Positions 4,256 through 24,492 of a stretch of DNA of 40,051 nt are shown in pieces (the first letter of the stretch is position 1; every line of letters begins with the position of its first letter). The position numbers and the translations under genes are program-made. Origin of the DNA: Proteromonas lacertae (Eukaryota); assembly GCA_002245135.1 (NCBI GenBank), contig NGBS01001206.1, positions 1 to 40,051 of the forward strand, read 5' to 3'. The notes under the pieces were generated by a model, which was not told where the DNA came from, made no database searches, and worked only from the letters and a program-made list of their open reading frames with translations.

Positions 4256-4395
4256 TATAATCAGGATACTATCAAAGTTAGCTAGGTTAAAAAGTATTAT
4301 TTGGTTGTATTTCCTATTATTTTACTTTTATCTACGCTTTGTCATATTATTAATTAAGATATACAAAAATATATAAAAATATCTAATTAAGAATA

Positions 4396-5319
4396 ATGAT
4401 AATGAAATATTTGATTTTAATATTATTCTTTTCTTTGTATAGTATATTATTATATTTGTATATATCACTAATGTATATAACATATGAGTATATTTTTATT
4501 ACATGTTATTTTCAAGACGAAAAGATAAATAATAGAAAAGTACATAGTTTAGAGAATTATAAAAAATGGATAGATACTTTCTTCAAGAATGTTAAAAAGA
4601 ATGTGATTGTATTTACAGACAATAGAAAATTATTACAACAATATAAACCTTTAAGAATATTTTATTACAATAGTATTGAAGAAGTTCCAATTAATATCAA
4701 CAAGTCTAATCTTTATAAGTATCAAATGAAAATAGAGCCATGTGTATATGAAAGAAGTTGGAGAAGTAAAATGATATGGAATTCTAAGCTATATTTTATG
4801 AAAATTGCAATTAATTATTACTATTCTCCAACATATATATGGATTGACATAGGATGCATGAGATACCAACAGAATTATATTAATTTACCTGATTTAAAAA
4901 AAATAAAACAACTATCATCTAATAATGAAATGAATTTCTTTATAACTAGAAGAAATTCATTTATTCCAGAGAAAATACTAAGTTATAAGTGCTTATATAT
5001 AATTGCAACATCATTTTTTGGTTCAAAACTTGCTGTAGAAAAATTCGCTAAAGCATTTTATAATGTTTTGGATGAGTATCTGCTACATAAAATATATTTT
5101 GGAACAGAACAAAACCTCTTCGATTATATTACATTAAAATATTACAATAATTCTTTAATCTATCCTTTATATCTATCTAAATGTAATGAAAGAAGTACAT
5201 TTTGGGAATTCTTAAAATATTATTCAAATTATAAATGTTCAGAAACAATTATTCCATTTAAATATTATACTAATATAAAGTATATGTCAATTAAATACAC
5301 AATAAAATGTAATTGTTAA
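4396..5319 (+). CDS. HtrL/YibB (WlaTC)-family putative glycosyltransferase
   Basis: FITCYF, YKKWI, VIVFTD, IWNSKLYFMKIAI, YIWIDIGCMR, FFGS, GTEQN; N-terminal TM segment. Confidence 0.75.
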   Translation: MIMKYLILILFFSLYSILLYLYISLMYITYEYIFITCYFQDEKINNRKVHSLENYKKWIDTFFKNVKKNVIVFTDNRKLLQQYKPLRIFYYNSIEEVPININKSNLYKYQMKIEPCVYERSWRSKMIWNSKLYFMKIAINYYYSPTYIWIDIGCMRYQQNYINLPDLKKIKQLSSNNEMNFFITRRNSFIPEKILSYKCLYIIATSFFGSKLAVEKFAKAFYNVLDEYLLHKIYFGTEQNLFDYITLKYYNNSLIYPLYLSKCNERSTFWEFLKYYSNYKCSETIIPFKYYTNIKYMSIKYTIKCNC

Positions 5320-5370
5320 TTACATATTATTAATTTAATATGAATATATGAATATTATTTTGATTAATAC

Positions 5371-6129
5371 CTAGTATAGATAGATTTTACATAATCCTAA
5401 TTTTGTTGATTTTATCCCTATATGTTCATATTTAATTCCTCGATGTTGATCATTGTTACTGAATAAGAAAGCTAAATATAATTTTCTTTTCAAAAAATAT
5501 AATCCTGTTTTATATTCTGATATATATACATTTATCATTTTTAATATTCTACTCTTATACACTGTAGGGCCATTCAAAAAATTTCTATTTTCATAAGGAT
5601 TAATTAGTTTTATCATATTCATTTTTTCATTATTTATTATTATTGAAGAATAACTTCCATTCTTTACAACCATTTTTCTTAGTATAACTCCATATATATT
5701 TTTTGATAAAGATAATGCTGTAATTGAATCCTCCAAAAAATTGTGTCTAGTATAATTATATATTTCTTTGTTTATAATCCAATCTTCTTCTAGCAAAAAG
5801 ACATAATTATAATAAATGTAAGAGAATAGGATTTTAAACGAGTATTCATAATTCTTGGGGCTTATAAAAAAGGTATTTCTTAAATTATAATTAGTTCTTA
5901 TTATGTATCTTTCTAAAGTACCTTGATCAATAAATATAATTGTATACTCTAATTTTTGGTCATATTTCAGTAAATGTGAATATAAAGAGAATAATGTTTT
6001 ATTTAAATAAGTATATCTATTACATGCAGTTATCATTATTTGAATTGTTGTGTAGTAACTTAAATGAAATATATTTAGAAAAATTAACGATTCTAAAATA
6101 CAAAATATAACTGATATATATATAAACAT
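5371..6129 (-). CDS. GT-A fold (GT2-like) glycosyltransferase
   Basis: IMITACNRYTYLNKTLFSL, FIDQG, YVFLLEEDW, C-terminal YEHIG; N-terminal TM segment. Confidence 0.7.
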   Translation of the reverse strand: MFIYISVIFCILESLIFLNIFHLSYYTTIQIMITACNRYTYLNKTLFSLYSHLLKYDQKLEYTIIFIDQGTLERYIIRTNYNLRNTFFISPKNYEYSFKILFSYIYYNYVFLLEEDWIINKEIYNYTRHNFLEDSITALSLSKNIYGVILRKMVVKNGSYSSIIINNEKMNMIKLINPYENRNFLNGPTVYKSRILKMINVYISEYKTGLYFLKRKLYLAFLFSNNDQHRGIKYEHIGIKSTKLGLCKIYLY

Positions 6130-6152
6130 AATTAATTATCATCACAATAAAT

Positions 6153-6995
6153 ATGAAAATTGTAATTTTGTGGTATGTAATTTTATTTATTAATTTAATG
6201 TATATATCTCTATACTTTTACACATTCAACTCATTTGAATGTTGTAATATAAAGAAATACAACCAAATTTCATATTATGATTTAGGTTCAAACAATGGAG
6301 ACTCATTATTATGGCTTTTCGGATATAAAAATAGAAACAATTCATATCATGTGCCTTATCCTTTTTTTCAACATTTTCCAACTAATAAAGTAACTGTACA
6401 TGTATTTGAAGCAAATCCTCTTTTATGTAATTTTATAGAAGAGAATGTTGATTTTTTAAAAACAGTAACAAATATGTGTAATTTTTATGTTAACTGTCCT
6501 GTTGTTGTATCAAATAGAAGCGGATTTATAAATTTCAAATCCACTTCAGGAACATTAGGAAGTTCTGCATATTATAATAAATCAGAAAGAGGTGCTAAAA
6601 TAATGAAAATAAGATCAATCGATATAGTAAGTTATTTTATGTTACATATAAGGCATAATGATTTTAACATTTTAAAATTTGATATAGAAGGTGAAGAATA
6701 TTACATGATTCCTAGAATGATTAAAGAAAATATTCTCCATTGCTTTGATTTAGTGTTTTCAGAATTTCATCCTTTCATAAATAATCCTGTAGGTATTGAA
6801 GAATCTTATAAAATATTCAATAATTTCAAAAATTATATGATTGAAAATATGATACCATATTTTGAAGAATATAATATTAGCAAAGATTTAATGAAAATAT
6901 ATCATGCAAAAATTAATTTATTATACAATTTTAGAAAAGATATATTTAATGAGTATAAATCAGAAATAATTAATAATAATTTCATTCATCTCTAA
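6153..6995 (+). CDS. FkbM-family SAM methyltransferase
   Basis: YYDLGSNNGDS, VHVFEANP, LKFDIEGEEY, SEFH; N-terminal TM segment. Confidence 0.85.
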   Translation: MKIVILWYVILFINLMYISLYFYTFNSFECCNIKKYNQISYYDLGSNNGDSLLWLFGYKNRNNSYHVPYPFFQHFPTNKVTVHVFEANPLLCNFIEENVDFLKTVTNMCNFYVNCPVVVSNRSGFINFKSTSGTLGSSAYYNKSERGAKIMKIRSIDIVSYFMLHIRHNDFNILKFDIEGEEYYMIPRMIKENILHCFDLVFSEFHPFINNPVGIEESYKIFNNFKNYMIENMIPYFEEYNISKDLMKIYHAKINLLYNFRKDIFNEYKSEIINNNFIHL

Positions 6996-7222: not shown

Positions 7223-8050
7223 TTAGTCTTCTGAATCACGTTCCTTATCCGTAGATGCGTTTACTACTACTTCTGATGACTTCGCCGGGTAAGGAGTTGC
7301 TTCAGAAGCTAGATTCAGATGCTTTGCTGGAGGATCACTTGAAGCAGCTCGCGATGGTACTGAGGGTTTTGTTATCGATATCTTCTTCGGAGGACTACTA
7401 AGCTGTTTTTGTCTCCTCATTGATTCTATCCTGAGCCGGTGATGATCTTCATATTGTCTTAAGCGATGATACAGACTCAAGAGACAGCACATCGGAAGTG
7501 ACTTTACCTTTGGATCTACGTGAAAGTTGATATGTCCATCTTTGATAGATAAAACTATCTTGGCCTGGCAAGACTTCTCTTTGAGGTGAACAGCATCACA
7601 TGGAAATGAAATAATCTTATCGAACATCCCATCATGGTCGATTAGATCATTGTTGTCCTTGACTGTCTTAATAATCTCATGTATACTGTGTTGTATAAGC
7701 TGATTAATTATATCCCTTGTTTTATCTCTGGAGTTGATGGAGATGCCTGATTGTTGATTCTTAGTAGGTTTCCCAGATCTACATCTTGGACAACATAGAT
7801 AATAGTCTCCATTGGGCTTTAACATCATCGATGAAGCGAAGCGCATATGGCATCTACTGCAGGACATAATCTAGGCTGTGAGTTAAGCGTTCTCTTCCAA
7901 GGCTTTACGTTCTTCATGGCATCGGGCTATTGTCTTCTGCTTTGCCTTTCGTAATAGAGCTCTACAAGAACTACAACAGCTGTATGCTCTTCCATCAGCT
8001 TCAGATTGGAACTCCTTCTTACATCTACTACTTTTGACGATGGATTGCAT
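7223..8050 (-). pseudogene. Cys-rich (zinc-binding) orphan; ORF 7223-7867 extends in frame to an ATG at 8050 through two stops
   Basis: MQSIVKSSRCKKEF...YSCCSSCR...EENA*LTA*IMSCSRCHMRF...YLCCPRCR: a tandem repeat of the same Cys motif in one frame. Confidence 0.6.
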
Positions 8051-8718
8051 GGTTACCAATTAAGTATAAAAATAACTAGAAATATCTTAATGCCTTGAGT
8101 GACTATAATAATAGACTGTGTATTTACATTATGATGTTGACATCCTCATAGTTAATGTCTCTTTTCCTAGAAATAAGTTCTTACTCATATCTAGGAATGA
8201 TGATTAGTAGAAAGTCTGTAACTGGTTACTACATACTGATCACTTAGATAAGCTATTGGAATTTAGCAACTAAGTCCAGGATCTATTTTCTATGTCCCTA
8301 TTTTTAAACCTTCCTAACGATGTCCTTAAGTCCGGCCAGTTGATCTCATTCCAGTGTTAGGGTATCTGGTACTGTACTTTATAGTGAACTGTTGATTACA
8401 GATTCATCTCAATTCATTTTTTTCTTTAGAATTCGGATCTTAGAAGTTGAGGGCGATCTCCTGAGTTGATGAGGCAAGGCTATGTAGGAGGTGGTTCAGA
8501 TATAAGCAGTAGCTGTACTGGGGTTCGAACCCGGAGGGGATGGGATGTTGGTACCTGGTCTGCCCACTAGCATTTTATAGTTTAAATGACATATATCATC
8601 CCATAATAAATAATGTTCAAAATGTAATATTCACATATGTTGAAGAAGAAATAAATATAATAAACCAACCAAAAGTTCAAATGTATTTTTGCTTTTAAAA
8701 TTCTTATAATCTTCTTTG

Positions 8719-9090
8719 CTAAAATTGTAACTCAATATTTTTCATTTCATCGTTGCTAAAGTATAAATTCATATACTCATTTCGATCCAATGTTTCTTGG
8801 TGCTTGATAGAGATTAACTTCTGATTATCAAAATTACACGAAAAACAATGATAAACTGCTGTTGCTGACTTCTCTAATTCGATGTAGTTGAATTGTGGTG
8901 GACTTTGCTTCTTCTTTGATTTTTTGCTGTCATCATAAGCCAAACTTTGAATATACATTTCGTCGCAAAATGTCTTTAAATGCTGGATGTTACGACTCAC
9001 TTTCTGATAGAACTCATAAGCCTGTCCCTTTAATGGAAGCTGGGAGCATAATTCTGAATTGGTTGGTTGTTTGACTCTGTCTGCTGGCAT
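8719..9090 (-). CDS. Hypothetical protein
   Basis: 123-aa ATG ORF with normal composition; no recognised motif. Confidence 0.55.
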   Translation of the reverse strand: MPADRVKQPTNSELCSQLPLKGQAYEFYQKVSRNIQHLKTFCDEMYIQSLAYDDSKKSKKKQSPPQFNYIELEKSATAVYHCFSCNFDNQKLISIKHQETLDRNEYMNLYFSNDEMKNIELQF

Positions 9091-9339
9091 TTTTGATTGA
9101 ATGATTGAATAATTAATTTTCTATTAAAGTAAAAAAATGAAAAAAATAAAATACTGAAAATGAGTAAGAAAAGTGTGAATGAAAAAAAAACGGTTTTTCT
9201 TTATGCAATTTTTAAAGGGGGGTACAAAAAATAACTTTCAAAATCAAATACGAAAGAAGACTATATAAAATTAAATATTTATGAATGGTTTTTGAATTTC
9301 AATCTCAGGTTTATTAATAGGAATAATTTCTATTTCTGT

Positions 9340-9660
9340 TTATAATGGTTCTTCATCTTCATTATCACTAGCATTTCTAGAATTTATTCTACTATTTTCA
9401 GGTGTTAAAGTAAATGGAATAGCAGAAACAATAGTAGATTTACCTAAAGCTCTATTTATTACAGGTTCTGGTTCATTTAATATCTCAGTGATTTCTGCTG
9501 GACAATATCTATGATATAACCATACTACAATTTTTTTAACTTTATAAAGAATCCATAATAACATACATACAAAAAATATAAGACCTTCTTGCTTTAGACT
9601 TGTTAATGTATCATTCATATCTTTAAGCATAGTTGAATATTGTGTATTAATAAATGACAT
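9340..9660 (-). CDS. Small single-pass membrane protein
   Basis: 106-aa ORF with hydrophobic GLIFFVCMLLWILY followed by basic residues. Confidence 0.55.
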   Translation of the reverse strand: MSFINTQYSTMLKDMNDTLTSLKQEGLIFFVCMLLWILYKVKKIVVWLYHRYCPAEITEILNEPEPVINRALGKSTIVSAIPFTLTPENSRINSRNASDNEDEEPL

Positions 9661-9723
9661 TTTATGTGAAATTATTTATATATAAAAACGCATAGAAATA
9701 TAAAAATGAATTTTAAACCAAAG

Positions 9724-10320
9724 TTAATTAATTATACAGGTAGGTGATGTAGTTAGATCTACTGTAGCTACCCCCGGGATAGAACTTGTAGGTGTTTCTA
9801 CTTTAGCAATATCTACCTTTGGTCGACCCTCGGCAGTGGAACTATTCTCTACTTTACGCTTCTTATCTTCTCCACTATTATCACTTCCTTTCTTTACTTC
9901 TTCATATCTTCTCTTCTTCTTATTTCTACACTCTGTACAAGATTTATAGAATACACCTTCACTCTTATAACCAAATTCATCATTAGCTTTCTTCTTACCA
10001 CAAGTACTACATACATGTGAATCTGGATCTAACTTTGTTATATCCTTTCTTTTTTTAGATTTAGATTCACTTTGTTTTTCTTCCTTCACTTCTTCTTCTT
10101 CCATTGTTATATCAATATCATCACCTGGTTGTTCACTCCATTCTAGATCATCTTCATACTCTTCAATCACAGAATACATACCATCCAACATATCCTTAAA
10201 TACTTTAATGATTAATGATTTTACTTCAGACATATCATTCTCATAGAGATTCTTATACATTTCACCTTCTTGTAAGTGTTTTTCAATATTAGCATCCAAT
10301 TCGTTTTGTATATCACTCAT
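9724..10320 (-). CDS. Acidic/basic protein with a CxxC...CxxCR zinc-binding motif
   Basis: CSTCGKKK...YKSCTECRNKKKRR; NLS-like basic runs. Confidence 0.65.
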   Translation of the reverse strand: MSDIQNELDANIEKHLQEGEMYKNLYENDMSEVKSLIIKVFKDMLDGMYSVIEEYEDDLEWSEQPGDDIDITMEEEEVKEEKQSESKSKKRKDITKLDPDSHVCSTCGKKKANDEFGYKSEGVFYKSCTECRNKKKRRYEEVKKGSDNSGEDKKRKVENSSTAEGRPKVDIAKVETPTSSIPGVATVDLTTSPTCIIN

Positions 10321-10446
10321 TTTAATTTATGTAAATTATTACAAAAATAGCAAGAAATTTATGAATGAAAAGAATTATGTAATATTATGTTTATTTCTAT
10401 TCAGCCAATCAAAAACAATATTCAATTAAAACCAATGATTTAAGAA

Positions 10447-10797
10447 TTAGTTATGAAATCTTAGTCTCTCTTCAATGATGTTTTTTTCATCAATACCATA
10501 ACGCTTTAACATCTTTGTTTTTCTGCGCTCCTCTTCTGGATCAACCCATTTTCTAGGGCGTATGGTTGCTTGTGCTACTCTAGTTGGTTTATGAATTGCA
10601 CGCCATTCTTCATACTTTCTGTCATCCTCATCAGCTGTATCAGATGTATACCACATTACTACTGGAGGTGATGGTGGTGGTTGAGCTACTATTCTAGCTA
10701 CTTCACTTTCAATGATTGCATAGATTCTTTCAAATTCTTCATCTTCACGCTTATTTCTATCTTCTATATTAACATTCTCGATCCAAATTCTTGACAT
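10447..10797 (-). CDS. Hypothetical protein
   Basis: Likely ATG at 10797 (MSRIWIENV...); charged protein with a PPPSPP segment. Confidence 0.55.
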   Translation of the reverse strand: MSRIWIENVNIEDRNKREDEEFERIYAIIESEVARIVAQPPPSPPVVMWYTSDTADEDDRKYEEWRAIHKPTRVAQATIRPRKWVDPEEERRKTKMLKRYGIDEKNIIEERLRFHN

Positions 10798-10943: not shown

Positions 10944-10959
10944 TAACCCTAACCCTAAC
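10944..10959 (+). repeat. Short telomere-type repeat (TAACCC)2.7
   Basis: taaccctaaccctaac, i.e. TTAGGG units on the minus strand. Confidence 0.6.
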
Positions 10960-11280
10960 TACAGTGATATTCTTACTGTTATATATATATTGTATATTTG
11001 ATAGATTATTTTTTCTACTCCATAATTGGGCCTAGTTAATCTTTGACTTCCTAAACCTCGATTTTCTATTAAAATACTCTTTCAGCTTATCTGTTAGTAA
11101 ATTTATTACCAAAATCAATTACATCTACTTTATCTTCATAAAATAATGATGCTTCTATACCATTTCGCTGTACATGATAGTATTATACAGTTTATAAATA
11201 TTATAAAGTAAGTATAATAATAATAAATATATATATATATATAGTACTTACATTTTGAAATATCTTCTTTGTTTCAAAGG

Positions 11281-11823
11281 TATGTTGTGCGCCGTTTGTC
11301 ATATGACCAACCTCTGCAGTATACTATTTTGTTAATAAAAATAGTTTAAATATTTGTGCCGTTTGTTTTCTAGAACTTTTTAATCAAACTAAATTCATAT
11401 TTAGCTAATATAGACTAAAATACATTAGCTGAAATGATTAGAATAACTTAATGTTGATCATAAGACATTTAAATTAAAAAAAGAAAATATAGAATCAAGC
11501 CTCACTCAAGCCTATATTTTACATCTCATCTTTTATATAGAAGGATTTAATAATTCTTATATTCTAATCATTTCAGCTAATGTATATTAGTCTATATTAG
11601 CTAAATATGCATTTAGTTTGCTTCAAAAATTTCTAGAAAACAAATGGCGCAAATATTCAAACTATTTATATTAACAAAAAAGTATACTGCAGGGTTAGGT
11701 CATATAACAAAGTAAGTATAAAAGTAACAATTTTTCATCAAGACAAGTAAGAATATACATTTAGTTTGTTTTAAAAGTATCTGGTAGACAAACGGCCAAC
11801 TATGACAATCGGGGCACAACATA
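11281..11823. mobile_element. Foldback/MITE-like element, copy 1
   Basis: Termini tatgttgtgc...gcacaacata; inverted arms ~11281-11444 and ~11561-11823 around an asymmetric core containing tcaagcctcactcaagcc. Confidence 0.9.
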
Positions 11824-12128: not shown

Positions 12129-13076
12129 ATAAATAAGTATTTTATATTATTCACCTTTCTTTTTCTTATTGTATTATTTATATTTAATAGTTATAGTCTT
12201 AATAAAAATAATGGATATAAATTCTTAAATAGCTACATTTATTTTACAAATAATAACCTATTTAATAATAGAATAAAATACATCCCTAAGAATTCATGTG
12301 GGTTAGGTAATAAGCTCTTAGGATTAATTAGTTCAATTGCATATGGAGTGTCTTATTCGTATTCATTGAAAGTACATAGTTGGGATAGTTTGTGGTGGTA
12401 TTTTAATTATCCTCTCAAAAATGATGAAACTCAATACATCTTTAATGTTACTTTTCACGGCCATTTTTATGGTATAAAAAGAGTAGTTACCGATGAAAAT
12501 ACAAGGAAATTTTTACTTAAGCAAGGAATAATAACATACAACCAAAATATCAATATTATGGTTAATAATCTTGCTTATAAAATATCATCACGTTTTTTAA
12601 CTGTATGTGATATAATTAAATCAAAAATAAAGCTAAATTATATACACAACATTATATATGGAGCTCATATAAGAACAGGAATGGCGGATGGTAAAGAATA
12701 TCTATTACATTATTTAAAATATAATGATATAATAAGTATATTAAATTTTATTTCCAAAAATATAAACAATCATAGCATTTATATAAGTACTGATTCTGTT
12801 GGTGTAAAAAATATGTACAAATCTATAATATCTAATATAATTTATTTAAATTCATCCACATGCAATTCTGGATATGGATTATTAAAAAATAATGACAAAT
12901 GTGCAATTGAAGCAATTATAGACTATTACATTTTAAGTAAATGTAATTATCTAATATTAACTAGATGTAGCTCTTTTAGTTTAATTAGTCTCTTTGCTAA
13001 TAAAATTGGATATAAAAATAAAAGAATGTATAAATACTTTGGTAATTGCTCATTGCATTCTGATTTGTTTAATTGA
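12129..13076 (+). CDS. NodZ/GT23-like alpha-fucosyltransferase (GT-B); apparent ATA start
   Basis: Frame is open from ATA at 12129 (INKYFILFTFLFLIVLF...). Motifs CGLGNKL, GAHIRTG, IYISTDS, DYYILSKC, SSFS. Confidence 0.75.
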   Translation: MNKYFILFTFLFLIVLFIFNSYSLNKNNGYKFLNSYIYFTNNNLFNNRIKYIPKNSCGLGNKLLGLISSIAYGVSYSYSLKVHSWDSLWWYFNYPLKNDETQYIFNVTFHGHFYGIKRVVTDENTRKFLLKQGIITYNQNINIMVNNLAYKISSRFLTVCDIIKSKIKLNYIHNIIYGAHIRTGMADGKEYLLHYLKYNDIISILNFISKNINNHSIYISTDSVGVKNMYKSIISNIIYLNSSTCNSGYGLLKNNDKCAIEAIIDYYILSKCNYLILTRCSSFSLISLFANKIGYKNKRMYKYFGNCSLHSDLFN

Positions 13077-13082
13077 TTAAAT

Positions 13083-14030
13083 ATGAAATTCAAATATTTA
13101 CTTCAAATATATATCATCTTATTATTTTATTTTCTTATTAATGCACAATATAATAATTATTTTAGAATATGTATATTTGGTATGGCGTTAGGTTTGCCTA
13201 TTGTTTCTATTAAAATATTTATAATTTCATTACAAAAGACTAATTTTAAAGGAATACTAATTCTGTTCATTTTCAACGAATCCTTATATAAATTTAGCAA
13301 ATATTCATACACTTTAAAAATTATAATAATTGAAAAAGATTGGCCATATTATTCTCTTCAAAACAAAGAATATTTTCTGAATAATAAATTCTTAAAATCA
13401 TGCATTATTTCATATAAATTTTATAGATACAAATGGAATATATATAGATTCAGTTTTATCGACTGTTGGTTGAAAAAATATAGTAATAAATTTGATTTTT
13501 ATTTTATTTTGGATGTTCGTGATACTATCTTTCAATTGAATATTGAATATTATAACTATGAAAACGCATTATATATAAGTCAAGATGCACGTTTTCCATT
13601 TAAAATTAAAGACGACTATGCAAATAAAAAATGGATGAATGACTATGAGAAAAATTCTATGCTAGAGTATAATATTCCGCTTAATTCAGGAACTATATAT
13701 GGATCAAAAGAATGTTTAACAGAATTTGTATCAATCTTTGTAAAATTTATTAAATCTAAGTATTTAAACACAGCTGAACAAGGTACATTGAATTATTTAT
13801 ATTATAGTGGAAAATTTAACTCTGTTAGGATAATTATAAATAAAAATGAAAGAGATATTATATATAATATGGGTATTGAAGTTATATACAAAAGTTACTT
13901 TATAAATAATAATTATATCATAAAGAATTTCACATTATATAGAAATCCCAATAAATCTGTTCCACATATTGTTCATCAGTATGATAGAGACAAGAATTAT
14001 TTCAATCTTCTAAAAGCTATATACACATAA
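13083..14030 (+). CDS. Putative GT-A nucleotide-sugar transferase
   Basis: FILDVRDTIFQ, LNSGTIYG, EQGTLNYLYY, IVHQYDR; N-terminal TM segment. Confidence 0.7.
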   Translation: MKFKYLLQIYIILLFYFLINAQYNNYFRICIFGMALGLPIVSIKIFIISLQKTNFKGILILFIFNESLYKFSKYSYTLKIIIIEKDWPYYSLQNKEYFLNNKFLKSCIISYKFYRYKWNIYRFSFIDCWLKKYSNKFDFYFILDVRDTIFQLNIEYYNYENALYISQDARFPFKIKDDYANKKWMNDYEKNSMLEYNIPLNSGTIYGSKECLTEFVSIFVKFIKSKYLNTAEQGTLNYLYYSGKFNSVRIIINKNERDIIYNMGIEVIYKSYFINNNYIIKNFTLYRNPNKSVPHIVHQYDRDKNYFNLLKAIYT

Positions 14031-14031
14031 C

Positions 14032-15180
14032 ATATTATATATTGTAATTTTATTTATTATAATTATTCTTAATTTTAATAAAAGCAATTTGTCAAATATA
14101 AGATATACAAATCCTCAACACATTATTCGTTTATCATTTCATTACTTAAGCAAATTAAAAAACCTAAAATGCAAAAATCGAAAGAATATCTTATGTATAG
14201 ATTTCAATAATCGTAGTATTAATAATGTTTATCATTTCGCAACTTTTAGAATTAATAAAACTTATAAATTTATTACAAGTAAAATAATAACTACCTCATA
14301 TGATATAAGAATTAATGAACATAATGCATCATTTAAAAGAATTATCTTCAGTTTAAATATCTATGGATTCAAGCATGCTTTATTATCCTATGAAGGAAGT
14401 ATTCATTCTCAATGTTGGGATTTAACAATAACAGGAGGATGCAAATGCTATAATATACCACATATTTATTTCAATGTGTCAAATAATTATAAATACGATA
14501 AAGTAATATCAATTAGTCACCATTGGGGAAATGCTGTCTTTCATTCAATTGTTGAATGTCTAACAAAAATAGGATTTTATATTCCATATTTAGTTGAAGA
14601 TCAGTCAATAAAAATACATACAATGAAATCTGCTAATATAAAGTATTTACATTTCCTAGGATTTAATGATTCAAGATTATTATATGGAAATATATATGCA
14701 AAAAGATTGTTAGTATTAGAAAAAGGTGGATGTGGATCAACTCCACCTTTAATTCATTTAATATACTTAAGGATTTACATAAGAAAAAGGATAAAAACTA
14801 AACCTATGTATGACATAGTACTAATCAAAAGATTTGGCATTAGAGAAGTGCTGAATTTTGAGGAAATATTAAATATTATAAGAGAAAAGTTCACATTCAA
14901 AAATATAACAATATTTTATCCTAATACTACTTTTATAAATACATTAAATTATTTTAAATACGCCAAATTAATTATTGCTCCTCATGGAGCTGGTTTATCA
15001 AATCTAATAGTTACAGAAAACTGTAAAGTTATAGAATTCCTTTACAAAAATTATTGTTATTCCTCATTAGCTAATAAACTAGGATTAGAATATTATGGAA
15101 TTAAAGAAAAGTTATATGAAGGAAAATTTAAAGTAAACATCTCATTATTTAAATATTTAATTGAAAATATTGACATATAA
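14032..15180 (+). CDS. GT61 (DUF563) glycosyltransferase; apparent ATA start
   Basis: GNAVFHSIVECL, IIAPHGAGLSNLI, VIEF. In-frame hydrophobic ILYIVILFIIIILN begins at ATA 14032. Confidence 0.8.
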   Translation: MLYIVILFIIIILNFNKSNLSNIRYTNPQHIIRLSFHYLSKLKNLKCKNRKNILCIDFNNRSINNVYHFATFRINKTYKFITSKIITTSYDIRINEHNASFKRIIFSLNIYGFKHALLSYEGSIHSQCWDLTITGGCKCYNIPHIYFNVSNNYKYDKVISISHHWGNAVFHSIVECLTKIGFYIPYLVEDQSIKIHTMKSANIKYLHFLGFNDSRLLYGNIYAKRLLVLEKGGCGSTPPLIHLIYLRIYIRKRIKTKPMYDIVLIKRFGIREVLNFEEILNIIREKFTFKNITIFYPNTTFINTLNYFKYAKLIIAPHGAGLSNLIVTENCKVIEFLYKNYCYSSLANKLGLEYYGIKEKLYEGKFKVNISLFKYLIENIDI

Positions 15181-16878
15181 ATGAAACAAAATGTTTATAT
15201 TCAAGAACTAAGAGGTATATCCATTGTTTTTATTATACTTTATCACTTTTTAAATGATTTCAAAACATTTGGATTTTTAAGTGTATCCATTTTTCTTCAA
15301 ATATCAGGATATATTATAACATATACTTCTCTTAGCAGGAAAAAAGCAATGAAAGATTTCTATTATAAAAGAATGATAAATATATTTCCTCAGTTACTTT
15401 TTACTATTACAATCATATTATATATATATAGAAATGAAAGTTATAATAGACTTAATATGCTTTATGATGAAACTATATCTACTATTGAAATAATATCAAA
15501 TATATATTATTACAAAAGAGAAATTAATTATTTTAGTCAATTTGATAATCCTTCAATTACTCTACATTTTTGGTACATTTCTCTTCAGCAACAAATATAT
15601 ATATTGTATCCATTCCTATTTATTCTTTATACTTATTGTCACATTATATTGTATTTGCTATTAATAGCAAGTATATCATTATTTTATTTATACTTAAATT
15701 CAGATCCATCATTTTCTTATTATATAATCTTGTGTAGATTATATGAATTTATAATTGGTATGCTATGCAATAATAAAACATATTCAGTTATTTTAAGATA
15801 TACTATTAGTGGTAATTTTATTGTTTATATTATTATACTAGTACAATTGCTAAATATTACTATTCAAAAGTTATATAAGTTTATCATAATAAATATATTA
15901 TCACTATTATTACTAAATAGTATGAATTTAAATTCATTGAATATAAACTTCATTCTAAATATTTCATTGTTATATAGAATTGGTAATTTATCTTATGAAA
16001 TATACCTTGTTCATTATCCATTGATTAATTTTTGCAATTCAAGCATTATAAAATATATCTTGTTAATTGCTATTTTGTCCTATATTCTTTCATTTACAAA
16101 AGTAATGAATGATAAATATAAGTTTCGAATTTCTTTGATTTTACCTGTGTTAATAATTTCATACATAATATATAAAAAGTCTATAAATAATTATAAATTT
16201 AAAGAGATTTTTAGCATTACTTTAAATGATATGAATAAAGAATATTTAAAGACTATGAAGTGTATAAAAAAATACTATCCTATACCAAAATTGCATAATA
16301 TTTGTTTAATGTTATTAGGTGATTCACATTTAGAACAGTGGTTTCCTTCAATTATAGATATTGCAAAATCAAAAAAATACTCAATTATATATATAAGGTT
16401 TAATGTTAGAGATATAGAGTTAGAAAAATTTCAAATTGTAAAAGATACTATTAATGAATATAAATATATCAGTATTATACCCATAATATCAATATATATG
16501 AATCATCAATGGATAAATAATTATTCACTATTTCATTATCACTTCAAGAAATATATAAAAATTCTGCTTAATCAAACATTGTTCATTTATATTATTGAAG
16601 ATATACCATACTTACATACCAATCCTTTAAATTGCCTATATTCTTTAAGTGAAATAGATAGATGTTATTCAATATTAGGAATAAATTCATCTATTGAATC
16701 AATACCATTTATAAAAAATAACAAATTACATTATTGTAATATGAATAAACATATTTGTGAAAAGAAAATAATACATTTTATTAGAAATGGTATAATAGTT
16801 TATAAAGATAGCAATCATTTGACTTTATCTTTTTCAAAGACATTAACTAACAACTTAAATAACTGTATGTTGCTATAA
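15181..16878 (+). CDS. OafA/OatA-type acyltransferase-3 plus SGNH O-acetyltransferase
   Basis: IQELRGISI..ILYH, FLQISGYIIT, HFWYISLQQQIY, SYEIYLVHYP, GDSH, DSNHL. Confidence 0.9.
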   Translation: MKQNVYIQELRGISIVFIILYHFLNDFKTFGFLSVSIFLQISGYIITYTSLSRKKAMKDFYYKRMINIFPQLLFTITIILYIYRNESYNRLNMLYDETISTIEIISNIYYYKREINYFSQFDNPSITLHFWYISLQQQIYILYPFLFILYTYCHIILYLLLIASISLFYLYLNSDPSFSYYIILCRLYEFIIGMLCNNKTYSVILRYTISGNFIVYIIILVQLLNITIQKLYKFIIINILSLLLLNSMNLNSLNINFILNISLLYRIGNLSYEIYLVHYPLINFCNSSIIKYILLIAILSYILSFTKVMNDKYKFRISLILPVLIISYIIYKKSINNYKFKEIFSITLNDMNKEYLKTMKCIKKYYPIPKLHNICLMLLGDSHLEQWFPSIIDIAKSKKYSIIYIRFNVRDIELEKFQIVKDTINEYKYISIIPIISIYMNHQWINNYSLFHYHFKKYIKILLNQTLFIYIIEDIPYLHTNPLNCLYSLSEIDRCYSILGINSSIESIPFIKNNKLHYCNMNKHICEKKIIHFIRNGIIVYKDSNHLTLSFSKTLTNNLNNCMLL

Positions 16879-16903
16879 TTAACAAATTGAAATGAATTGT
16901 AAA

Positions 16904-18414
16904 TTATTTTTTACAATTACATTTAATTTCCATTTTCATATCTTCACAGTTTAAATATTTTGATATTTCCTTTAGTATCGTATTTTCATTACTTCCAGTT
17001 AATCCTTCAGATATATATTTTAATGTAAAGAATAAATTAAACGGTGTAATATATCTATTTTGATTCTTCTTCAATATTGTGTATAAATTCTGATTTATTA
17101 GTTGTTTGTTTATAATCTATATATTTGAAGATATTAATTAATACTATAATCAGTGGCGGAAATGTGTTTTCTATTTCATTATAATACTTACCATAATGAA
17201 TTCCATGATCTCCAACAATAAATGTAATTAATTTATTTAATGTATTAGTTTCTATAGTTATATTATATTTTATACCATTTAGAATGCTAAAATAATTCTT
17301 TAACTCTTCATCAATACCTGCTACTGATAATTGTTTTGGCTAATTGTTTTATTATATAGGAGAATGATATACATCATGAGTCTCTGAAAAAGATGCAAAT
17401 GTAAAAGTAGAAACATTATGTTTGGCATAGTACATATGAGCTTTTTTCATGTATTTAAGAAACATATACGATATTCGTTTTCCATGTATACATCTTGGTC
17501 CAGTACCATATGCTCCTGTTTTGTTATAACTAATAATAATAAACTATAATATACTTATTAATTGAAGGATGACAAGCTAAATTTATGTTATGATCAGCGC
17601 CATATTTTACAGGCTTACCGTAATATTTTAAATTAATGTCACAGAATCCAGCTAAAGATAGTGTTTTATATCCATTATCATGATAGTAATTAAATAATGA
17701 CTTTTTCTAGAAAATTAAAAATATATACAACTGATTTAGTATTATTATTGTATTTTTCTCCATAGAATAATGGAATATAATTTGGTTTTGAATTAAGTCC
17801 AACAGTATGATATCTTAACATATCAAATATATAATAATTGCTTGATAGAGAAAGCAGGAATTTTTGTGTTTCGATAAACTGTTGATTAAAAGCCATTCTA
17901 GATAAACCATCAAATAGAAATAAATTTACAGAAATTCTATTATTTATGTGAATAATTCTTTGAGGAATAAAATGTAAAAATAAATAATTATTGCTATGTG
18001 ATTCATAATATTGTATTTCATAATCTAATATTCTGTTAATTACCTATTTCATAATAACAATTATACATAAGAGGTGGAATAGAAAAATCTAAAACTCTCT
18101 AATCTAATCCCATAAGTGGATGTATTGAATAAATATATTTTAAATTTGACTTTTGTTAAATTTGTAGTTCTATGTGTATTACTACAACTATACGGACTAT
18201 TCATTGGAAAATTCTCTTTTCTTGTATAGGAACAATTGATTTTGCATAAACTTTCACTATCTTCATATTTATTACTTGAAATCCAACTATAGCATAATGT
18301 ATTTTTCAAAGAAAAATAGTGTCTGCTTTCACTAGCACAAAATATATGAAACAATAGAAATAATATAAGAAATATAGTATAACTTATTATATAAAATGAT
18401 ATAATTTTCATCAT
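16904..18414 (-). CDS. DUF229 (alkaline phosphatase/sulfatase-like) protein with 5-6 tiny introns
   Basis: Splicing GT-AG introns 18044-18066, 17707-17728, 17530-17554, 17340-17372 and 17117-17144 (plus optional in-frame 17252-17275) gives one ORF. Motifs NLFLFDGLSRMAF, YHTVGLNSKPN, RCIHG, GDHG, NQNRYITPFN, C..CNC; stop at 16904-16906. Confidence 0.85.
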
Positions 18415-18463
18415 ACTATGCGTTTTTAATAATGGAATTAGTTTGTGACTTAATACAATAAAT

Positions 18464-19249
18464 ATGAAAGCTTTAATTATTATACTTACGATTAATTTAT
18501 TATCCTTTATATATATTATATATGTAATTTTTAAACATACAAATATGAAATTTAATAGATATCCCAATAAAGACTACATCACTCTAGTTCATGAATCATA
18601 TAATAATATTCCCGATTTGAACATAATGTTACAAAGTTTAAAAAATATATATACTAATGAATCTGTAGATTCATTCTACATTTTAGATTCTATTAGGTTA
18701 TTATCAAAGTCATTTAGAAGTCAAAAATATGCAAATATGTTATCCAAAAAGGATGGTGATATTTCTGCTTATTATGACCAAATGCTTATATATAGAAACG
18801 AAATAATCAACAGTAATAAAATATATACAATTAGAAATATATGCGAAATAGGATTTCAAGTCGGTATAGGATCTCTTACATTCCTTACATCTTTGAAACA
18901 TAATTTAGTCTATTATGGATTTGATTATGGTATGAATTATTCTAAATGTTGTTATAATATTATTTCTAATTATTTTAATATGAATATTATTTGGGGAAAA
19001 AGTGAAGAAACTGTGCCTCATTCTAAGAATATTGTGTGTGATATAATTCATATTGATGGTGATCACAAACAAATATCTATTTATAACGATATAATTAACA
19101 TGAAACAATTATCACATAGACATACACTTTTATTTTTGGATGATGTGAATATAGATAGTAATACAATAATTAAAGCAAAAAGAGATAGAATAATAGAAAA
19201 CATTAATTGCTTTAATTGGAAACCATTTTGTATATGTAACTATAACTAG
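18464..19249 (+). CDS. Class I SAM methyltransferase (Methyltransf_24-like)
   Basis: ICEIGFQVGIGS, GFD, WGKSEETVP, CDIIHIDGDH, FLDD; N-terminal TM segment. Confidence 0.85.
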   Translation: MKALIIILTINLLSFIYIIYVIFKHTNMKFNRYPNKDYITLVHESYNNIPDLNIMLQSLKNIYTNESVDSFYILDSIRLLSKSFRSQKYANMLSKKDGDISAYYDQMLIYRNEIINSNKIYTIRNICEIGFQVGIGSLTFLTSLKHNLVYYGFDYGMNYSKCCYNIISNYFNMNIIWGKSEETVPHSKNIVCDIIHIDGDHKQISIYNDIINMKQLSHRHTLLFLDDVNIDSNTIIKAKRDRIIENINCFNWKPFCICNYN

Positions 19250-19290
19250 CAAAGTTAATCAAGCTGATATAATTCTGCTATACAGTTTAA

Positions 19291-20238
19291 ATGAAAATAT
19301 CATGCATTTTAGCCACATTTATTATTATCTATTTCATTTTATATTGTTTTATGTATATATCATTATTAAATATGCTATATTTATTAAAAATAAAAGGTAT
19401 TTCACCAAAAACATATAAGAAGCTATTAACATATAATACTAGTATTTCTTTGTATCAAGTTAAAAGTGTTTTATATATTCAAAAGCCAATTCATAAAATT
19501 AAATACAATTCATTCATTGTTTTTGGTGTTACATCAACATCAGATTCATTTAACATTAGAATGGTTATTAGAAAGACATTAGGAAAACAAATGAAATATT
19601 ATAATTCATTGCTATTCTTCTTTATAGCAAATTCTAATGTAGATTATTATAATTATTTATTATCGATAGAAGTAAAGTTATACAATGACGTAATCCAATT
19701 ATCTCTATATGAGAGTTATTTAAATCTTACCATATTAACAATATGGATGATGAAATGGGTAGTTGATAATTGCAAATTTATATATCTTATAAAAAATGAT
19801 CAAGATGTTATTCCTAATATAAAACTAACATACATTTATTTACTATCATTAATAAATACAACTTGCTCTTATGGAATTTTAAGTAAAAACGAAGTAGTAT
19901 GCAGAAATAAAAATTCAGTACATTATATCCCTTATTATTCATACAAGAAAAACAATCTACCTTCATATATATTTGGATATTTTGCAATTTATAATTATAT
20001 ACTTATAAACTATATTAACAATATTTCTTTTACTGTATATCCAATAATATACAAAGAAGATGTTCATATTGGTTTATTGACTTCAAAAAGCAATTATTCT
20101 TTCTGCAAAATAAGGCATAAAATAGTGAGTAAAATAAAAGAAAATAATGTTACAAATATAGATAATAACACTATATCAATCCATGGAGTAAATTATATCA
20201 ATTATCTAAAACTGTATAAGTTAATAAATGGTATGTAG
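19291..20238 (+). CDS. GT31 beta-1,3-galactosyltransferase-like
   Basis: RMVIRKTLG, EVKLYNDVIQ, ESYLNLT, KNDQDV, EDVHIG. Confidence 0.85.
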   Translation: MKISCILATFIIIYFILYCFMYISLLNMLYLLKIKGISPKTYKKLLTYNTSISLYQVKSVLYIQKPIHKIKYNSFIVFGVTSTSDSFNIRMVIRKTLGKQMKYYNSLLFFFIANSNVDYYNYLLSIEVKLYNDVIQLSLYESYLNLTILTIWMMKWVVDNCKFIYLIKNDQDVIPNIKLTYIYLLSLINTTCSYGILSKNEVVCRNKNSVHYIPYYSYKKNNLPSYIFGYFAIYNYILINYINNISFTVYPIIYKEDVHIGLLTSKSNYSFCKIRHKIVSKIKENNVTNIDNNTISIHGVNYINYLKLYKLINGM

Positions 20239-20251
20239 TATATAAATTGCA

Positions 20252-21967
20252 TTAGCATCGTCTGTAGTAGTATTTTCCATGGACATAAAAGTTACACATT
20301 TTGTTTGTTTTATTAACTGTATGATATGAACCAATAATTCTAGAAAAGATAGAAGTAAAATGTTTATTAAACATTTGTGTATATAAAGGCGATAGATGTG
20401 ACATTGTATCATAAACACTAATTCTGTTATAAATGCAAGGGCAGATTTTGTTTTTACATATAATATTATTAAATGAAATGTATTGTGTGTTATTAATTGG
20501 TGGAATTATTCTGGGAAATATAGTTACATTCTTTCCAATAAACAGATCACATTTTAGATTATGTTTTTCATAACATTGTAAACATATATTATTTCTATAC
20601 AATTGTGGACTATCTTCTATGTATAATATTTTAGGAGATATAGAGCTTAAAAACATAATCATTTTAATTAAGTTATATTTAATTTCATTGTCACTATAAA
20701 TTTTAGAGGTATAAAATCCTAAAATTATCAATATCCAATTAATTTTTATACTATCAAAGTAACCTTTGTATTTATTTTTGCAGTTATCAATTTTCAAATG
20801 AAAATAAAAGTAATGAATCATTATACTATGAGATTTTGTGAATGGTAACATAGCTGGAATCCACTGTTCTAAATGAGAATCTCCTATTAATAAGAAATTA
20901 TTGCTGGATATAGAAACATTATCTGTAAAATGGCAATGACTACACCATAAAGTAGATGAATGTTTTATTGCCTCTTTTACAATATTAATATTATCATCGT
21001 TCTTTTTTATCTTTTTTGATAGATTTATAAAATTGTTCATGACAACAATGCACACTATAATTATTGTAGTAATTAGTATTGGATGTTTTCTTAACACACA
21101 TTCAATTAAATAATTATTTGTTATTGCAGATAGAAATGAAAAAACAACACTATAAAATGGATTATATTTAAAACTATACATATAATGATATAAATAAAGC
21201 GAATATGATATTTTACCACAATAAATAATTGATCTACTAAATATAAAATAAGAATTCACATTTGACTGATTCATACATATTCCATTTGATATATATGATA
21301 TAAATACGGTATTGATAAATATATTACTAAGTTTATATGTATTTAATAATATAATCAATATTATAGCTATATTGATGTTTATATTAATAAAATATGACAA
21401 TCTGTGAAGATAATAATACCATAATCTAGTAATAGTATTATAATAATTGATATTACCTTGAATATATATTTCAGTAACAAAATTATATATGAAAGACAAT
21501 ATGATTATAATATAATAAATATAAGATAAATCAGTAATATAGCCAAAAACAGTATGAATAATATATAATTGAAAAATAACAGATACATACCATAAATGAT
21601 TGAATAAAGACTTATTCTCTTTGACAAAGTAATCATTTTCATTCATTATTAATTTATAATTATATACATAACCAAATATATAAAAAATATCATTAACATC
21701 ATTATCGCTAATTATGTTCTGTCTAATAAGATAAAAAGCTGTATATATTGTTAATATGTAATAACTTGGTGTTATTCTACAATATCTATGACAAATATTC
21801 GCAACAAAATTATAGGTATGTTTAATTGACGATAAATACCCTGATATGTTAATAAATACCACAACTGATAAAAATCCGTATTTAAAGAATTGAACATTAT
21901 TATGATAAAGAATAATCAATAAAATACAATATCCTTTTAAAATTTCAATATCATATCTGTAATTCAT
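20252..21967 (-). CDS. Second acyltransferase-3 plus SGNH O-acetyltransferase
   Basis: DIEILKGY..ILYH, FINISGYL, HLWYVSV..QLY, SYSLYLYHY, GDSHLEQW, C-terminal DTMSHL. Confidence 0.85.
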   Translation of the reverse strand: MNYRYDIEILKGYCILLIILYHNNVQFFKYGFLSVVVFINISGYLSSIKHTYNFVANICHRYCRITPSYYILTIYTAFYLIRQNIISDNDVNDIFYIFGYVYNYKLIMNENDYFVKENKSLFNHLWYVSVIFQLYIIHTVFGYITDLSYIYYIIIILSFIYNFVTEIYIQGNINYYNTITRLWYYYLHRLSYFINININIAIILIILLNTYKLSNIFINTVFISYISNGICMNQSNVNSYFIFSRSIIYCGKISYSLYLYHYMYSFKYNPFYSVVFSFLSAITNNYLIECVLRKHPILITTIIIVCIVVMNNFINLSKKIKKNDDNINIVKEAIKHSSTLWCSHCHFTDNVSISSNNFLLIGDSHLEQWIPAMLPFTKSHSIMIHYFYFHLKIDNCKNKYKGYFDSIKINWILIILGFYTSKIYSDNEIKYNLIKMIMFLSSISPKILYIEDSPQLYRNNICLQCYEKHNLKCDLFIGKNVTIFPRIIPPINNTQYISFNNIICKNKICPCIYNRISVYDTMSHLSPLYTQMFNKHFTSIFSRIIGSYHTVNKTNKMCNFYVHGKYYYRRC

Positions 21968-22071
21968 ACTTTTAGAAGTTGAATGAAGTATTTACTTATA
22001 ATAGGTAAATATTTAAATGTAAATGATATATATATAAAAGAATAACAGCAAATCCTATAAAAATACTGAAT

Positions 22072-22911
22072 TTATTTTCTTTTTGCTACAATATTATTCT
22101 TTATGGTCTTATTGCAATCAAATTTTTTTATGATTTTATATCCCATATCATCAAGAATTTTAAACATATTCACTATTTCATATACATCGTCTTTATTCTT
22201 TTTTCCGCATTCGATTTCCATGTGAATGAATTCAATTTCATGATTTTTAAAGAATTTTCTTCCTCCTTTAATTAATTCATACTCGCCACCTTCTACATCA
22301 ATTTTTATCATTGAAATTTTAGTAGGGATAAGTTTGTCAAATTGATCTAATAATTTAACATGTACTGTTTCTTTATAATCAAAATGATTATAATAGAAAG
22401 AAAAATAACCCCAATTGTTCTTAGCTATACTCATAACTTGATGATCTTCTCTGTTTCCTAAAGCATAGGGATATATTGTTATAAGACTTGAAAATTTTGG
22501 ATTACTAAAGGTAGTAACACTAAATGGAAATAAATTATTTGGAAGAGGTTCAAATGCATATACCTTTATACCTGCATATGCAAAGACAAAAGAGCATGAA
22601 CCGATATTTGCCCCAAAATCTACAAATACACCATCTCTACTTCCTGATAAATAGATATTATATATATCTTGACATTCACTCCACCTACCTCTTTCTCTTA
22701 TATAGTTTGACACATAATCGTTACTTCTAATAACTTGCGCAAATGATATATTTATGTATTTAGTTTTTGTAAAGAAATAAGATTGTTCATTTATTATGGT
22801 TGGAGCTACTACATGTTTTACCATCCTTATATAGGTATTTCGACTATGATAAAGAAATAATAGTAAAGCTAATACAAAAATAATATATATACTAATTATG
22901 TATATTTTCAT
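22072..22911 (-). CDS. FkbM-family SAM methyltransferase
   Basis: FVDFGANIG, VYAFEP, PYALG, IKIDVEGGE; N-terminal TM segment. Confidence 0.9.
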   Translation of the reverse strand: MKIYIISIYIIFVLALLLFLYHSRNTYIRMVKHVVAPTIINEQSYFFTKTKYINISFAQVIRSNDYVSNYIRERGRWSECQDIYNIYLSGSRDGVFVDFGANIGSCSFVFAYAGIKVYAFEPLPNNLFPFSVTTFSNPKFSSLITIYPYALGNREDHQVMSIAKNNWGYFSFYYNHFDYKETVHVKLLDQFDKLIPTKISMIKIDVEGGEYELIKGGRKFFKNHEIEFIHMEIECGKKNKDDVYEIVNMFKILDDMGYKIIKKFDCNKTIKNNIVAKRK

Positions 22912-23040
22912 TATAGTTTAATCAATATATTGTTTGATTTATATTAAATACAAGCTTTTAATAGAAATACGTTATTATACTAAATTCTTTTAATATAAAT
23001 TTTAGTATTATACTTTACAATTAATTAGCATTTTATAAAT

Positions 23041-23994
23041 CTAGATATAAATACATTTTACATTTGATCTAGAACAAGACAAATTATAATAAGTACTTAA
23101 ATGTGATCCTATAGCTATGTCACATTGTGATATTAAATAATTATCAGCTAACAGTTTAATCCCACTTTCATAACTTCCTCCATGCATTGACCCATGTGGA
23201 TCTATTATAGGTCCTGGTATTGTGTAATTTAATACATAATCGTTAAATAGTTTATTAACTTTCTTAATAATCATATTAGAATCTGATATAATAAGCAATT
23301 TATAGTGATTAAATTGATTTAATAATTTATTAATAGATATTAAATACTTGTTAAATACTTTCGGTGAGTACCATATCGATGTTTTTGATAAATCTAATAG
23401 AAATCCAGTTCTAATATGCACCCCTATTACCGTTGATTTATATTTTAGTCTAATGAATTTTATGATATATTTAGCTACTCTATCACATGGCTGAAAAAAT
23501 ACATTTTGAATTAAGATATTCCACTCTTTTATATTTATTTTAGTAAATTTTATTAACTTTGATTCACGATATAGAGTATATACCACATTCATGAACCCAT
23601 GTAGTTTATATATAGATATTCTGCTGTAAGAATCTAATAGAGTTTTAATTGTATTGTTGACAAATCTAATCTCGATTGTATTTGTTATACTTATATTGTT
23701 ATTTAACATATATGATGGCATTTTGAAGTACAATATCATTTCTTTCCATCCAAAAATAAAAAAAGTGGATGAAGATACTAAGGACAAAAATATGCTGGAT
23801 ATTATTGTGGGAATTTTATTTCCCAGTCCACATTGAACCATAGTTTTATATATAACTAAATTCTTCCTTTTATGGTGGTTGTTGTTATATATCATTTTCT
23901 CTATTTTTCTTTCTGAGTAATTGAGAAGATTTACTTTTCTTATCATAGTAATCAATGATAATATAAATAATATTGAATAATTAATTATAGTCAT
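23041..23994 (-). CDS. NodZ/GT23-like alpha-fucosyltransferase
   Basis: CGLGNKIP, IGVHIRTG, LIISDS, DNYLISQCD, STYY. Confidence 0.8.
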   Translation of the reverse strand: MTIINYSILFILSLITMIRKVNLLNYSERKIEKMIYNNNHHKRKNLVIYKTMVQCGLGNKIPTIISSIFLSLVSSSTFFIFGWKEMILYFKMPSYMLNNNISITNTIEIRFVNNTIKTLLDSYSRISIYKLHGFMNVVYTLYRESKLIKFTKINIKEWNILIQNVFFQPCDRVAKYIIKFIRLKYKSTVIGVHIRTGFLLDLSKTSIWYSPKVFNKYLISINKLLNQFNHYKLLIISDSNMIIKKVNKLFNDYVLNYTIPGPIIDPHGSMHGGSYESGIKLLADNYLISQCDIAIGSHLSTYYNLSCSRSNVKCIYI

Positions 23995-24088: not shown

Positions 24089-24492
24089 AAAACAAACTCG
24101 ATGCATATTCTTACTTGTCTTGATGAAATAATGTTACTTTTATACTTACTTTGTTATATGACCTTACCTCTGCAGTATACTATTTTGTTAATATAAATAG
24201 TTTGAATATTTGTGCCGTTTGTTTTCTAGAAATTTTTGAAGCAAACTAAATGCATATTTAGTTAATATAGACTAAAATATATTAGCTGAAATGATTAGAA
24301 TAACTTAATGTTGATCATAAGACATTTAAAATGAAAAAAGAAAATATAGAAACAAGCCTCACTCAAGCCTATTTTTTACATGTCTTCTTTTATATAGAAG
24401 GATTTAATAATTATTACATTCTAATCATTTCAACTAATGCATTTTAGTTTATTTTAGCTAAATATGAATTTAGTTTGCTTCAAAAATTTCTA
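24089..24492. mobile_element. Foldback/MITE-like element, copy 2 (both termini truncated)
   Basis: Same arm and core sequence as 11281-11823; the core is in the same + orientation. Confidence 0.9.

Follow-up and report, generated by a model that had tools for sequence, protein, structure and literature searches.

Four abutting genes for predicted glycan-modifying enzymes in an ultra-compact gene cluster of Proteromonas lacertae

Positions 1 to 40,051 of the Proteromonas lacertae contig NGBS01001206.1 (assembly GCA_002245135.1, forward strand), referred to here as the window, contain a run of four co-directional open reading frames (ORF1 to ORF4) with next to no sequence between them (Table 1). 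All four frames are open, and each is homologous to real protein families. The run belongs to a very densely packed cluster of genes whose predicted products modify glycans, in a eukaryote with tiny introns. An earlier note on this DNA had described the run as operon-like and offered two accounts of it, a polycistronic mRNA with reinitiation or overlapping transcription units.

Table 1. Features of the run and its surroundings, in positions of the window
Feature	Positions	Strand	Basis or remark
ORF1, GT-B fucosyltransferase-fold protein (FUT8/POFUT/NodZ superfamily), N-terminal hydrophobic anchor	12129-13076	+	Foldseek, and Pfam in the family; frame open from 12081
Spacer ORF1-ORF2, TTAAAT, 6 bp	13077-13082	+	ORF1 and ORF2 share a frame across TGA
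ORF2, likely GT-A glycosyltransferase, N-terminal hydrophobic segment, ATG start	13083-14030	+	DVRD and HQYDR motifs in sequence; language-model look-alikes
ORF3, GT61 glycosyltransferase, N-terminal anchor	14032-15180	+	PF04577 E=2.9e-16; frame open from 14014
ORF4, AT3-SGNH (OafA-like) O-acetyltransferase, ATG start	15181-16878	+	PF01757 E=1.9e-16, PF19040 E=5.3e-9, PHROG O-antigen acetylase E=1.5e-41
DUF229 gene, 459 amino acids, intact, convergent, 25 bp from ORF4	16904-18414	-	PF02995 E=1.4e-8 on one exon; five introns
Head-to-head spacer, 49 bp, two starts with almost no promoter room	18415-18463		internal control
Head-to-head spacer, 23 bp, first cluster	6130-6152		internal control
Palindromic repeat copy, left bound of 12-kb cluster	11295-11822		longer arm points inward
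Second copy of same palindromic repeat, right bound of cluster	24089-24492		longer arm points inward

The enzyme types that the earlier note had proposed, a fucosyl-, a glycosyl- and an O-acetyltransferase, were upheld as a fucosyltransferase fold (ORF1), a likely GT-A glycosyltransferase (ORF2), a GT61 enzyme (ORF3) and an AT3-SGNH O-acetyltransferase (ORF4), as predicted from sequence and, for the fold of ORF1, from a structural model. For that model (predicted local distance difference test score, pLDDT, 64), the top Foldseek matches in the PDB were all FUT8, POFUT1/2 and NodZ, FUT8 being the best (E=1.7e-4, prob 1.00, TMq 0.43). Pfam O-FucT was found in nine of 11 members of the ORF1 family and NodZ in eight of 11 (E<=0.1); ORF1 itself fell under the Pfam gathering scores (15.5 vs 31.5 bits and 14.3 vs 28.3 bits, respectively), and its profile had no match among PDB sequences. 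ORF2 had no match in Pfam, NCBIfam or PHROG, and no phage match. Its ESM Atlas look-alikes (0.94-0.97) were annotated as GT_PLOD (51% of members), GT8 (15%) and Nucleotid_trans (10%); its single-sequence fold was unusable (pLDDT 33), and the resemblance to GT-A enzymes comes from language-model features alone. ORF3 scored 60.4 bits against PF04577 (cut-off 27). In ORF4, an AT3 domain is fused to an SGNH domain with GDS and DxxH motifs, and across 17 sequences D381, H383 and H546 were invariant and S382 and D543 nearly so.

The closest relatives of the run are Logan-only families, mostly carrying N-terminal anchors, and hydrophobic segments open ORF1 to ORF3 as they do other cluster genes. Matches to ORF1 were Logan proteins in ten of ten cases (44-67% identity), as were all ten ORF4 relatives looked up; the 13 Logan homologues of ORF3, the best of 20, were 39-60% identical. 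ORF4 homologues start with their own methionine. The 11 best ORF4 relatives (E<=1e-30) span 279-629 amino acids, none of them fusion-sized, and the homologues of ORF1 and ORF3, searched in a length range that excluded fusions, terminate at about the same place as the window copies. Ten window proteins had no exact copy in the protein collection searched, and an Rfam search gave no match.

Direct reading of the junctions placed the ORF1 stop (TGA) at 13074-13076 and the ORF2 ATG at 13083. The ORF2 stop (TAA, 14028-14030) is followed by a single C and then by ATA at 14032 (TAACATA), and the ORF3 stop (TAA, 15178-15180) abuts the ORF4 ATG at 15181 with zero spacer (TAAATG). The stops, ATGs and gaps of 6 and 0 bp given in the earlier note were thus borne out. 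Its 1-bp gap and its ORF1 start at 12129 are valid only if ATA initiates; the open frame of ORF3 extends upstream of the ATA and overlaps ORF2 by 17 nt. That note mentioned ATA at ORF3 only and missed that ORF1, too, lacks an ATG at its 5′ end. ORF1/ORF2 (13074-13083) and ORF3/ORF4 (15178-15181) are each in frame across one stop, so that read-through would fuse them, for which the homologues offer no support; two such in-frame pairs are expected 1 in 9 times by chance.

Spacers were short in every orientation across the gene clusters of the window (13 gaps, median 41 bp). Head-to-head genes have their ATGs 23 and 49 bp apart, tail-to-tail genes have their stops 13 and 25 bp apart, and the remaining tandem gaps are 41, 104 and 129 bp. 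The earlier note had argued from the lack of promoter room to a polycistron, but the head-to-head pairs are equally cramped. No sense mRNA can be common to two head-to-head genes, so their control elements must either be minimal or sit within adjacent genes, and spacer-free packing is general in the clusters. Strand order alternates in the first cluster (+-+-+), and a same-strand run of at least four genes within clusters of five and ten genes is expected by chance (P=0.56).

Sequence signals of co-translation were not found in the run. Leaky scanning predicts ATG depletion upstream, as in green-algal bicistronic mRNAs (PMC11291117), but out-of-frame ATGs were not depleted in ORF1 to ORF3 (18, 15 and 23 against 14.2, 12.7 and 17.2 expected, z +0.8 to +1.8). 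The algal bicistrons resemble the run in their very short inter-ORF distance and in the weak start of the upstream ORF, whereas the upstream ORFs here are 948-1149 nt long compared with a median of 291 nt in Auxenochlorella (PMC11291117). The UGGGA motif used for reinitiation by the termination upstream ribosome-binding sites (TURBS) of caliciviruses and influenza B (PMC5972666) is absent, as TURBS motif 1, from the 120 nt before all three junctions. Shine-Dalgarno motifs (AGGAG, GGAG or GAGG) are likewise absent from the 120 nt upstream of them. In spliced-leader trans-spliced operons of the nematode or tunicate type, the spacer that separates a stop from the next start accommodates both a poly(A) site and a splice acceptor; here the nearest AG lies 58, 15 and 47 nt upstream of ORF2, ORF3 and ORF4, within the preceding coding sequence. 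Finally, none of 189 distant GT61 loci carried a relative of ORF1, ORF2 or ORF4 (32 viral, 79 metagenome and 78 genome loci, the last two sets drawn from the 80 top-ranking matches out of 445 and 522). The tests of leaky scanning, TURBS, trans-splicing and an inherited bacterial operon were all negative, and operon status is not supported.

We consider its second option, overlapping transcription units, the best reading, with moderate confidence that each of the four ORFs is transcribed as its own short-leader mRNA with ends inside the neighbouring coding sequences. We favor this reading because head-to-head and tail-to-tail genes are packed as closely in the same clusters, strands are mixed, and chance alone would produce four in a row. 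Each gene would have its promoter near the 3′ end of the ORF before it, within the final tens of bases; the transcript would start a few tens of bases upstream of its own ORF, inside the previous one, and cleavage and polyadenylation would take place in the AT-rich, anchor-coding first part of the next ORF. The first 75 nt of the downstream ORFs, which encode the anchors, have 9-20% GC, like the spacers (17%). Judging from their families, the products would be held by their anchors in the secretory pathway, where glycans destined for the surface would receive fucose, O-acetyl groups and further sugars from them. By analogy, the run may work like the overlapping units of the microsporidia Encephalitozoon cuniculi and Antonospora locustae, in which control elements are displaced into neighbours and one head-to-head pair is 35 bp apart (PMC2803860). 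As in microsporidia, spacers are too short for control elements, head-to-head genes lie tens of bases apart, and orientation is mixed; unlike there, spacers reach down to 0-6 bp, the packing occurs in islands within repeat-rich DNA, and the system is known from DNA alone (PMC2803860).

ORF1 and ORF3 raise a separate question, the missing ATG. The first in-frame ATG is found about half-way into each ORF, at 12558 in ORF1 and 14623 in ORF3. The nearest ATG upstream of ORF1, in any frame, lies 164 nt before 12129, and an in-frame ATG upstream of ORF3 (13981) is cut off by a TAA at 14011-14013. Seven full-length ORF1 homologues and eight full-length ORF3 homologues have a methionine start at or near these sites: ATA 14032 aligns with Met1 of the ORF3 homologue P0002, and residue 2 of the ORF1 homologue P0265 aligns to 12126, which is 3 nt upstream of ATA 12129. 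The sequence at either site is ATAA(G/C)ATA, one base off the neighbours' kind of start. ATA accounts for 31 of 300 N-terminal codons (10%) in 12 ATG-start cluster genes, so that an ATA near the start site proves nothing.

The rest of these genes appears undamaged. Alignment of ORF1, ORF3 and ORF4 with their closest homologues called for neither frameshifts nor stops; only alignment with the more distant P0004 required three compensating shifts. Otherwise invariant columns are broken at two of 81 positions in ORF1 and one of 39 in ORF3 (the missing methionine), within the range of the homologues. The frames from 12129 to 18414 are free of small-indel lesions, which are present further right in the window. 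In a dead gene, the chance that the first lesion falls on the start codon would be 0.04-0.11 if it is a substitution and 0.003 if it is an indel, giving a joint P of about 0.002-0.011 or 1e-5, respectively, for both starts being hit first; we note that a coincidence of 0.2-1% does arise among very many windows. Eight of 23 close homologues were called from a downstream methionine, without the anchor (five of 13 for ORF3, three of ten for ORF1), among them every one of the three proteins in one cluster (P0001, P0241 and P0242), whereas in homologues that have an internal methionine at 37-66 the call nevertheless began at the upstream one. The downstream calls fit recurrent ATG-less starts, but also contig ends, 5′ introns or the choice of the gene caller. 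A search for a tiny 5′ intron that would restore an ATG gave shortest candidates of 161 nt (ORF1) and 46 nt (ORF3, inside the conserved end of ORF2). No literature on nuclear AUA starts in protists turned up in a search too narrow to imply absence.

These observations leave the working and non-working states of ORF1 and ORF3 near even. That translation begins at a near-cognate codon, for instance ATA, is a tentative explanation, and recent start loss an equally tentative one; a start supplied by splicing is doubtful, as is an assembly error. Taken together, non-ATG and spliced-on starts have roughly the same probability as start loss and assembly error. That non-ATG starts work on separate mRNAs and recur across these gene families is likewise possible, at a confidence short of that which we give to separate transcription.

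Several observations weigh against separate transcripts and toward a true polycistronic mRNA, on which terminating ribosomes, in a 40S- or 80S-type process, would reinitiate at the adjacent start and tolerate ATA at ORF3. Of the 13 gaps, those of 6, 1 and 0 bp are the smallest, and they follow one another directly (P=0.03 for adjacency, and P=0.006 for three tight gaps when an exponential null is fitted to the remaining ten; both post hoc), so something may favor stop-start contact, and reinitiation keeps some probability. Stop-to-start distances of 6, 1 (if ATA is used) and 0 nt are of the kind required for termination-reinitiation, the junctions TAAATG and TAACATA bring stop and start together, and the enzyme types are related. 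Neither promoter motifs nor poly(A) motifs were identified, and the linkage test reached distant relatives only, with best segments 21-46% identical. Spacers of a few bp are reported with higher reinitiation (PMC11291117), and UGGGA is missing from several viral systems that reinitiate (PMC5972666). Work in yeast has shown induced reinitiation by 80S ribosomes on bicistrons (PMC11952965), and polycistrons of two to four same-strand genes occur in the compact genome of Cryptosporidium parvum (PMC11761812). In the TURBS and yeast systems stop and start are adjacent, as here, but the run has no UGGGA before its junctions and its upstream ORFs are about 1 kb long. ORF1, the first of the run, also lacks an ATG, and no upstream ATG-led ORF ends beside it. 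The Cryptosporidium polycistrons were shown by long reads, whereas our run was read from genomic DNA. With cramped head-to-head pairs showing that promoters need no spacer here, we regard a polycistron as unlikely. Its more specific form, a four-enzyme glycan-tailoring cassette on one mRNA with stop-start reinitiation, in which ATA serves as a nuclear start on alternate genes and sets their dose, is quite improbable.

It is rather unlikely that the run is partly dead or mis-assembled, in which case single-base changes, either recent mutations or errors in the consensus, would have removed the starts of ORF1 and ORF3 and the tight gaps would be functionless, an account compatible with our preferred explanation for ORF2 and ORF4. 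The start sites, one base away from a normal start, favor it, as do small-indel lesions elsewhere (seven one-base gaps vs two substitutions between the arms of a palindrome, four frameshifts and no stop in the 5′ part of a phosphoethanolamine N-methyltransferase (PEAMT) gene, and one frameshift at 32129 in a FucT copy) and a region rich in mobile-element debris; the unbroken bodies of ORF1, ORF3 and ORF4, the intact DUF229 gene and the coincidence of both starts being hit first (0.2-1% or less) argue against it. Starts might instead be supplied by RNA processing, through an AUG-ending leader, known from flatworms, or a 5′ micro-exon spliced to AG (AAG-ATA at 12128, AAG-CTA at 14016). The nearest upstream AGs are both in phase 0 with their ORF, as in three of 12 ATG-start genes, and for ORF1 a GTATAT donor paired with the ATG at 11937 would define an in-frame intron of 183 nt. 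All seven introns seen in the window, however, end in TAG and measure 22-33 nt, none of six ORF3 candidates has a GTAT-type donor, and splicing at 14016 would cut into the end of ORF2, which makes this very unlikely. We give still less weight to the remains of an operon gained horizontally from a bacterium or virus, or to a polyprotein made by read-through. ORF4 is OafA-like, the genes are intronless, two pairs are in frame, and the enterobactin operon of Wickerhamiella/Starmerella yeasts provides a precedent with co-directional, functionally related, intronless eukaryotic genes (10.1101/399394). The yeast genes have mostly monocistronic, partly overlapping mRNAs and mean spacers of 158-484 bp (10.1101/399394), whereas here no bacterial donor operon was found and the genes belong to expanded lineage-specific families. 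The closest relatives, being Logan-only and mostly anchored, the distant and unlinked bacterial and viral GT61 relatives, the missing Shine-Dalgarno motif and the lack of fusion-sized ORF4 relatives also speak against such a relic. A giant-virus origin of the cassette was considered and gained no support from viral-contig scans, which found no relative with the ORF1 alignment, ORF2, PEAMT, a protease or the ORF at 28260-29546.

The gene next to ORF4 bears on the nature of the host. Its DUF229 frame carries five GTAT..TAG introns (18066-18044, 17728-17707, 17554-17530, 17372-17340 and 17144-17117; 23, 22, 25, 33 and 28 nt), the single solution of a GTA..TAG search; an interpretation of this gene as a pseudogene broken in three frames was rejected, as the breaks are introns. 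A neighbour with tiny spliceosomal introns indicates a eukaryote, confirming the earlier note on this point. The PEAMT-like gene has two further introns (23 and 29 nt, found by eye and then located), and in three of its homologues the sequence seems to enter an intron at the corresponding position. All three stop codons terminate genes in the window, so that the host, an AT-rich eukaryote, has the standard code. Cluster genes have 20-26% GC and interspersed genes 31-42%; the motif TGTTTGTT occurs four times in the window and not in the cluster. As a candidate lineage, Blastocystis from tortoises is similar in GC (21-23%) but is described with introns of more than 30 nt and has median spacers of 645-719 bp (PMC12129017); the introns here measure 22-33 nt.

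Two further clusters of similar genes lie in the window (GT92, GT31, FkbM and other methyltransferases, a second AT3-SGNH and FucT-like genes). Five intact, intronless, anchor-bearing genes on alternating strands occupy 2102-6995 (gaps 93, 140, 51 and 23 bp; GT92, an FkbM methyltransferase and three without family), and five further intact genes occupy 18464-23994 (gaps 41, 13, 104 and 129 bp; Methyltransf_24, GT31, the second AT3-SGNH, FkbM and a NodZ-like FucT). A FucT-like paralogue at 31370-32330 (-) has a single one-base frameshift near 32129. The PEAMT gene (38281-39713, -) has two domains and at least four small frameshifts in its 5′ part, with no nonsense change; these are either consensus errors or decay. 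A fragmented GT31 gene (PF01762 on 35260-35598) and other fragmented anchor-bearing minus-strand frames lie at 35013-36900. On the minus strand at 7223-10797 are five unassigned ORFs of 26-41% GC, two with CxxC pairs and one weakly matching phrog_5558.

The 12-kb cluster is bounded by two copies of a foldback repeat, similar to miniature inverted-repeat transposable elements, whose longer arms point inward, and it is possible that the whole forms a composite mobile cassette. A third copy (32604-33689) is a 1.09-kb palindrome with arms 98% identical. Debris of higher GC at 24867-29546 and 1-2050 includes a protein-primed polymerase fragment (PF03175 E=0.006, below cut-off), an intact Ulp1/adenain-like cysteine protease (26720-27412) and a 428-amino-acid ORF (28260-29546) without a hidden Markov model match, which may be integrase-like; an 87-bp segment is present twice (1168-1254 and 26364-26446). 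We read the interspersed genes of 31-42% GC as putative Polinton-like debris. Broken frames at 33812-34500, beside the large palindrome, had no Pfam match and look like a hAT transposase remnant. Two tandem CCCTAA units (10946-10960) are telomere-like and too short to weigh.

Overlapping separate genes, as we read the run, are an extreme but known kind of compaction, and this reading would be useful mainly to annotators of this lineage, in which gene callers will shorten ORF1 and ORF3 and misread tiny-intron genes. If a single mRNA does give all four proteins, the run would be a natural example, from a cellular eukaryote, of ribosomes reinitiating once they have translated ORFs of 1 kb. Should the starts without ATG be functional, ORF1 and ORF3 would be unusual full-length nuclear enzyme genes with a near-cognate start codon.

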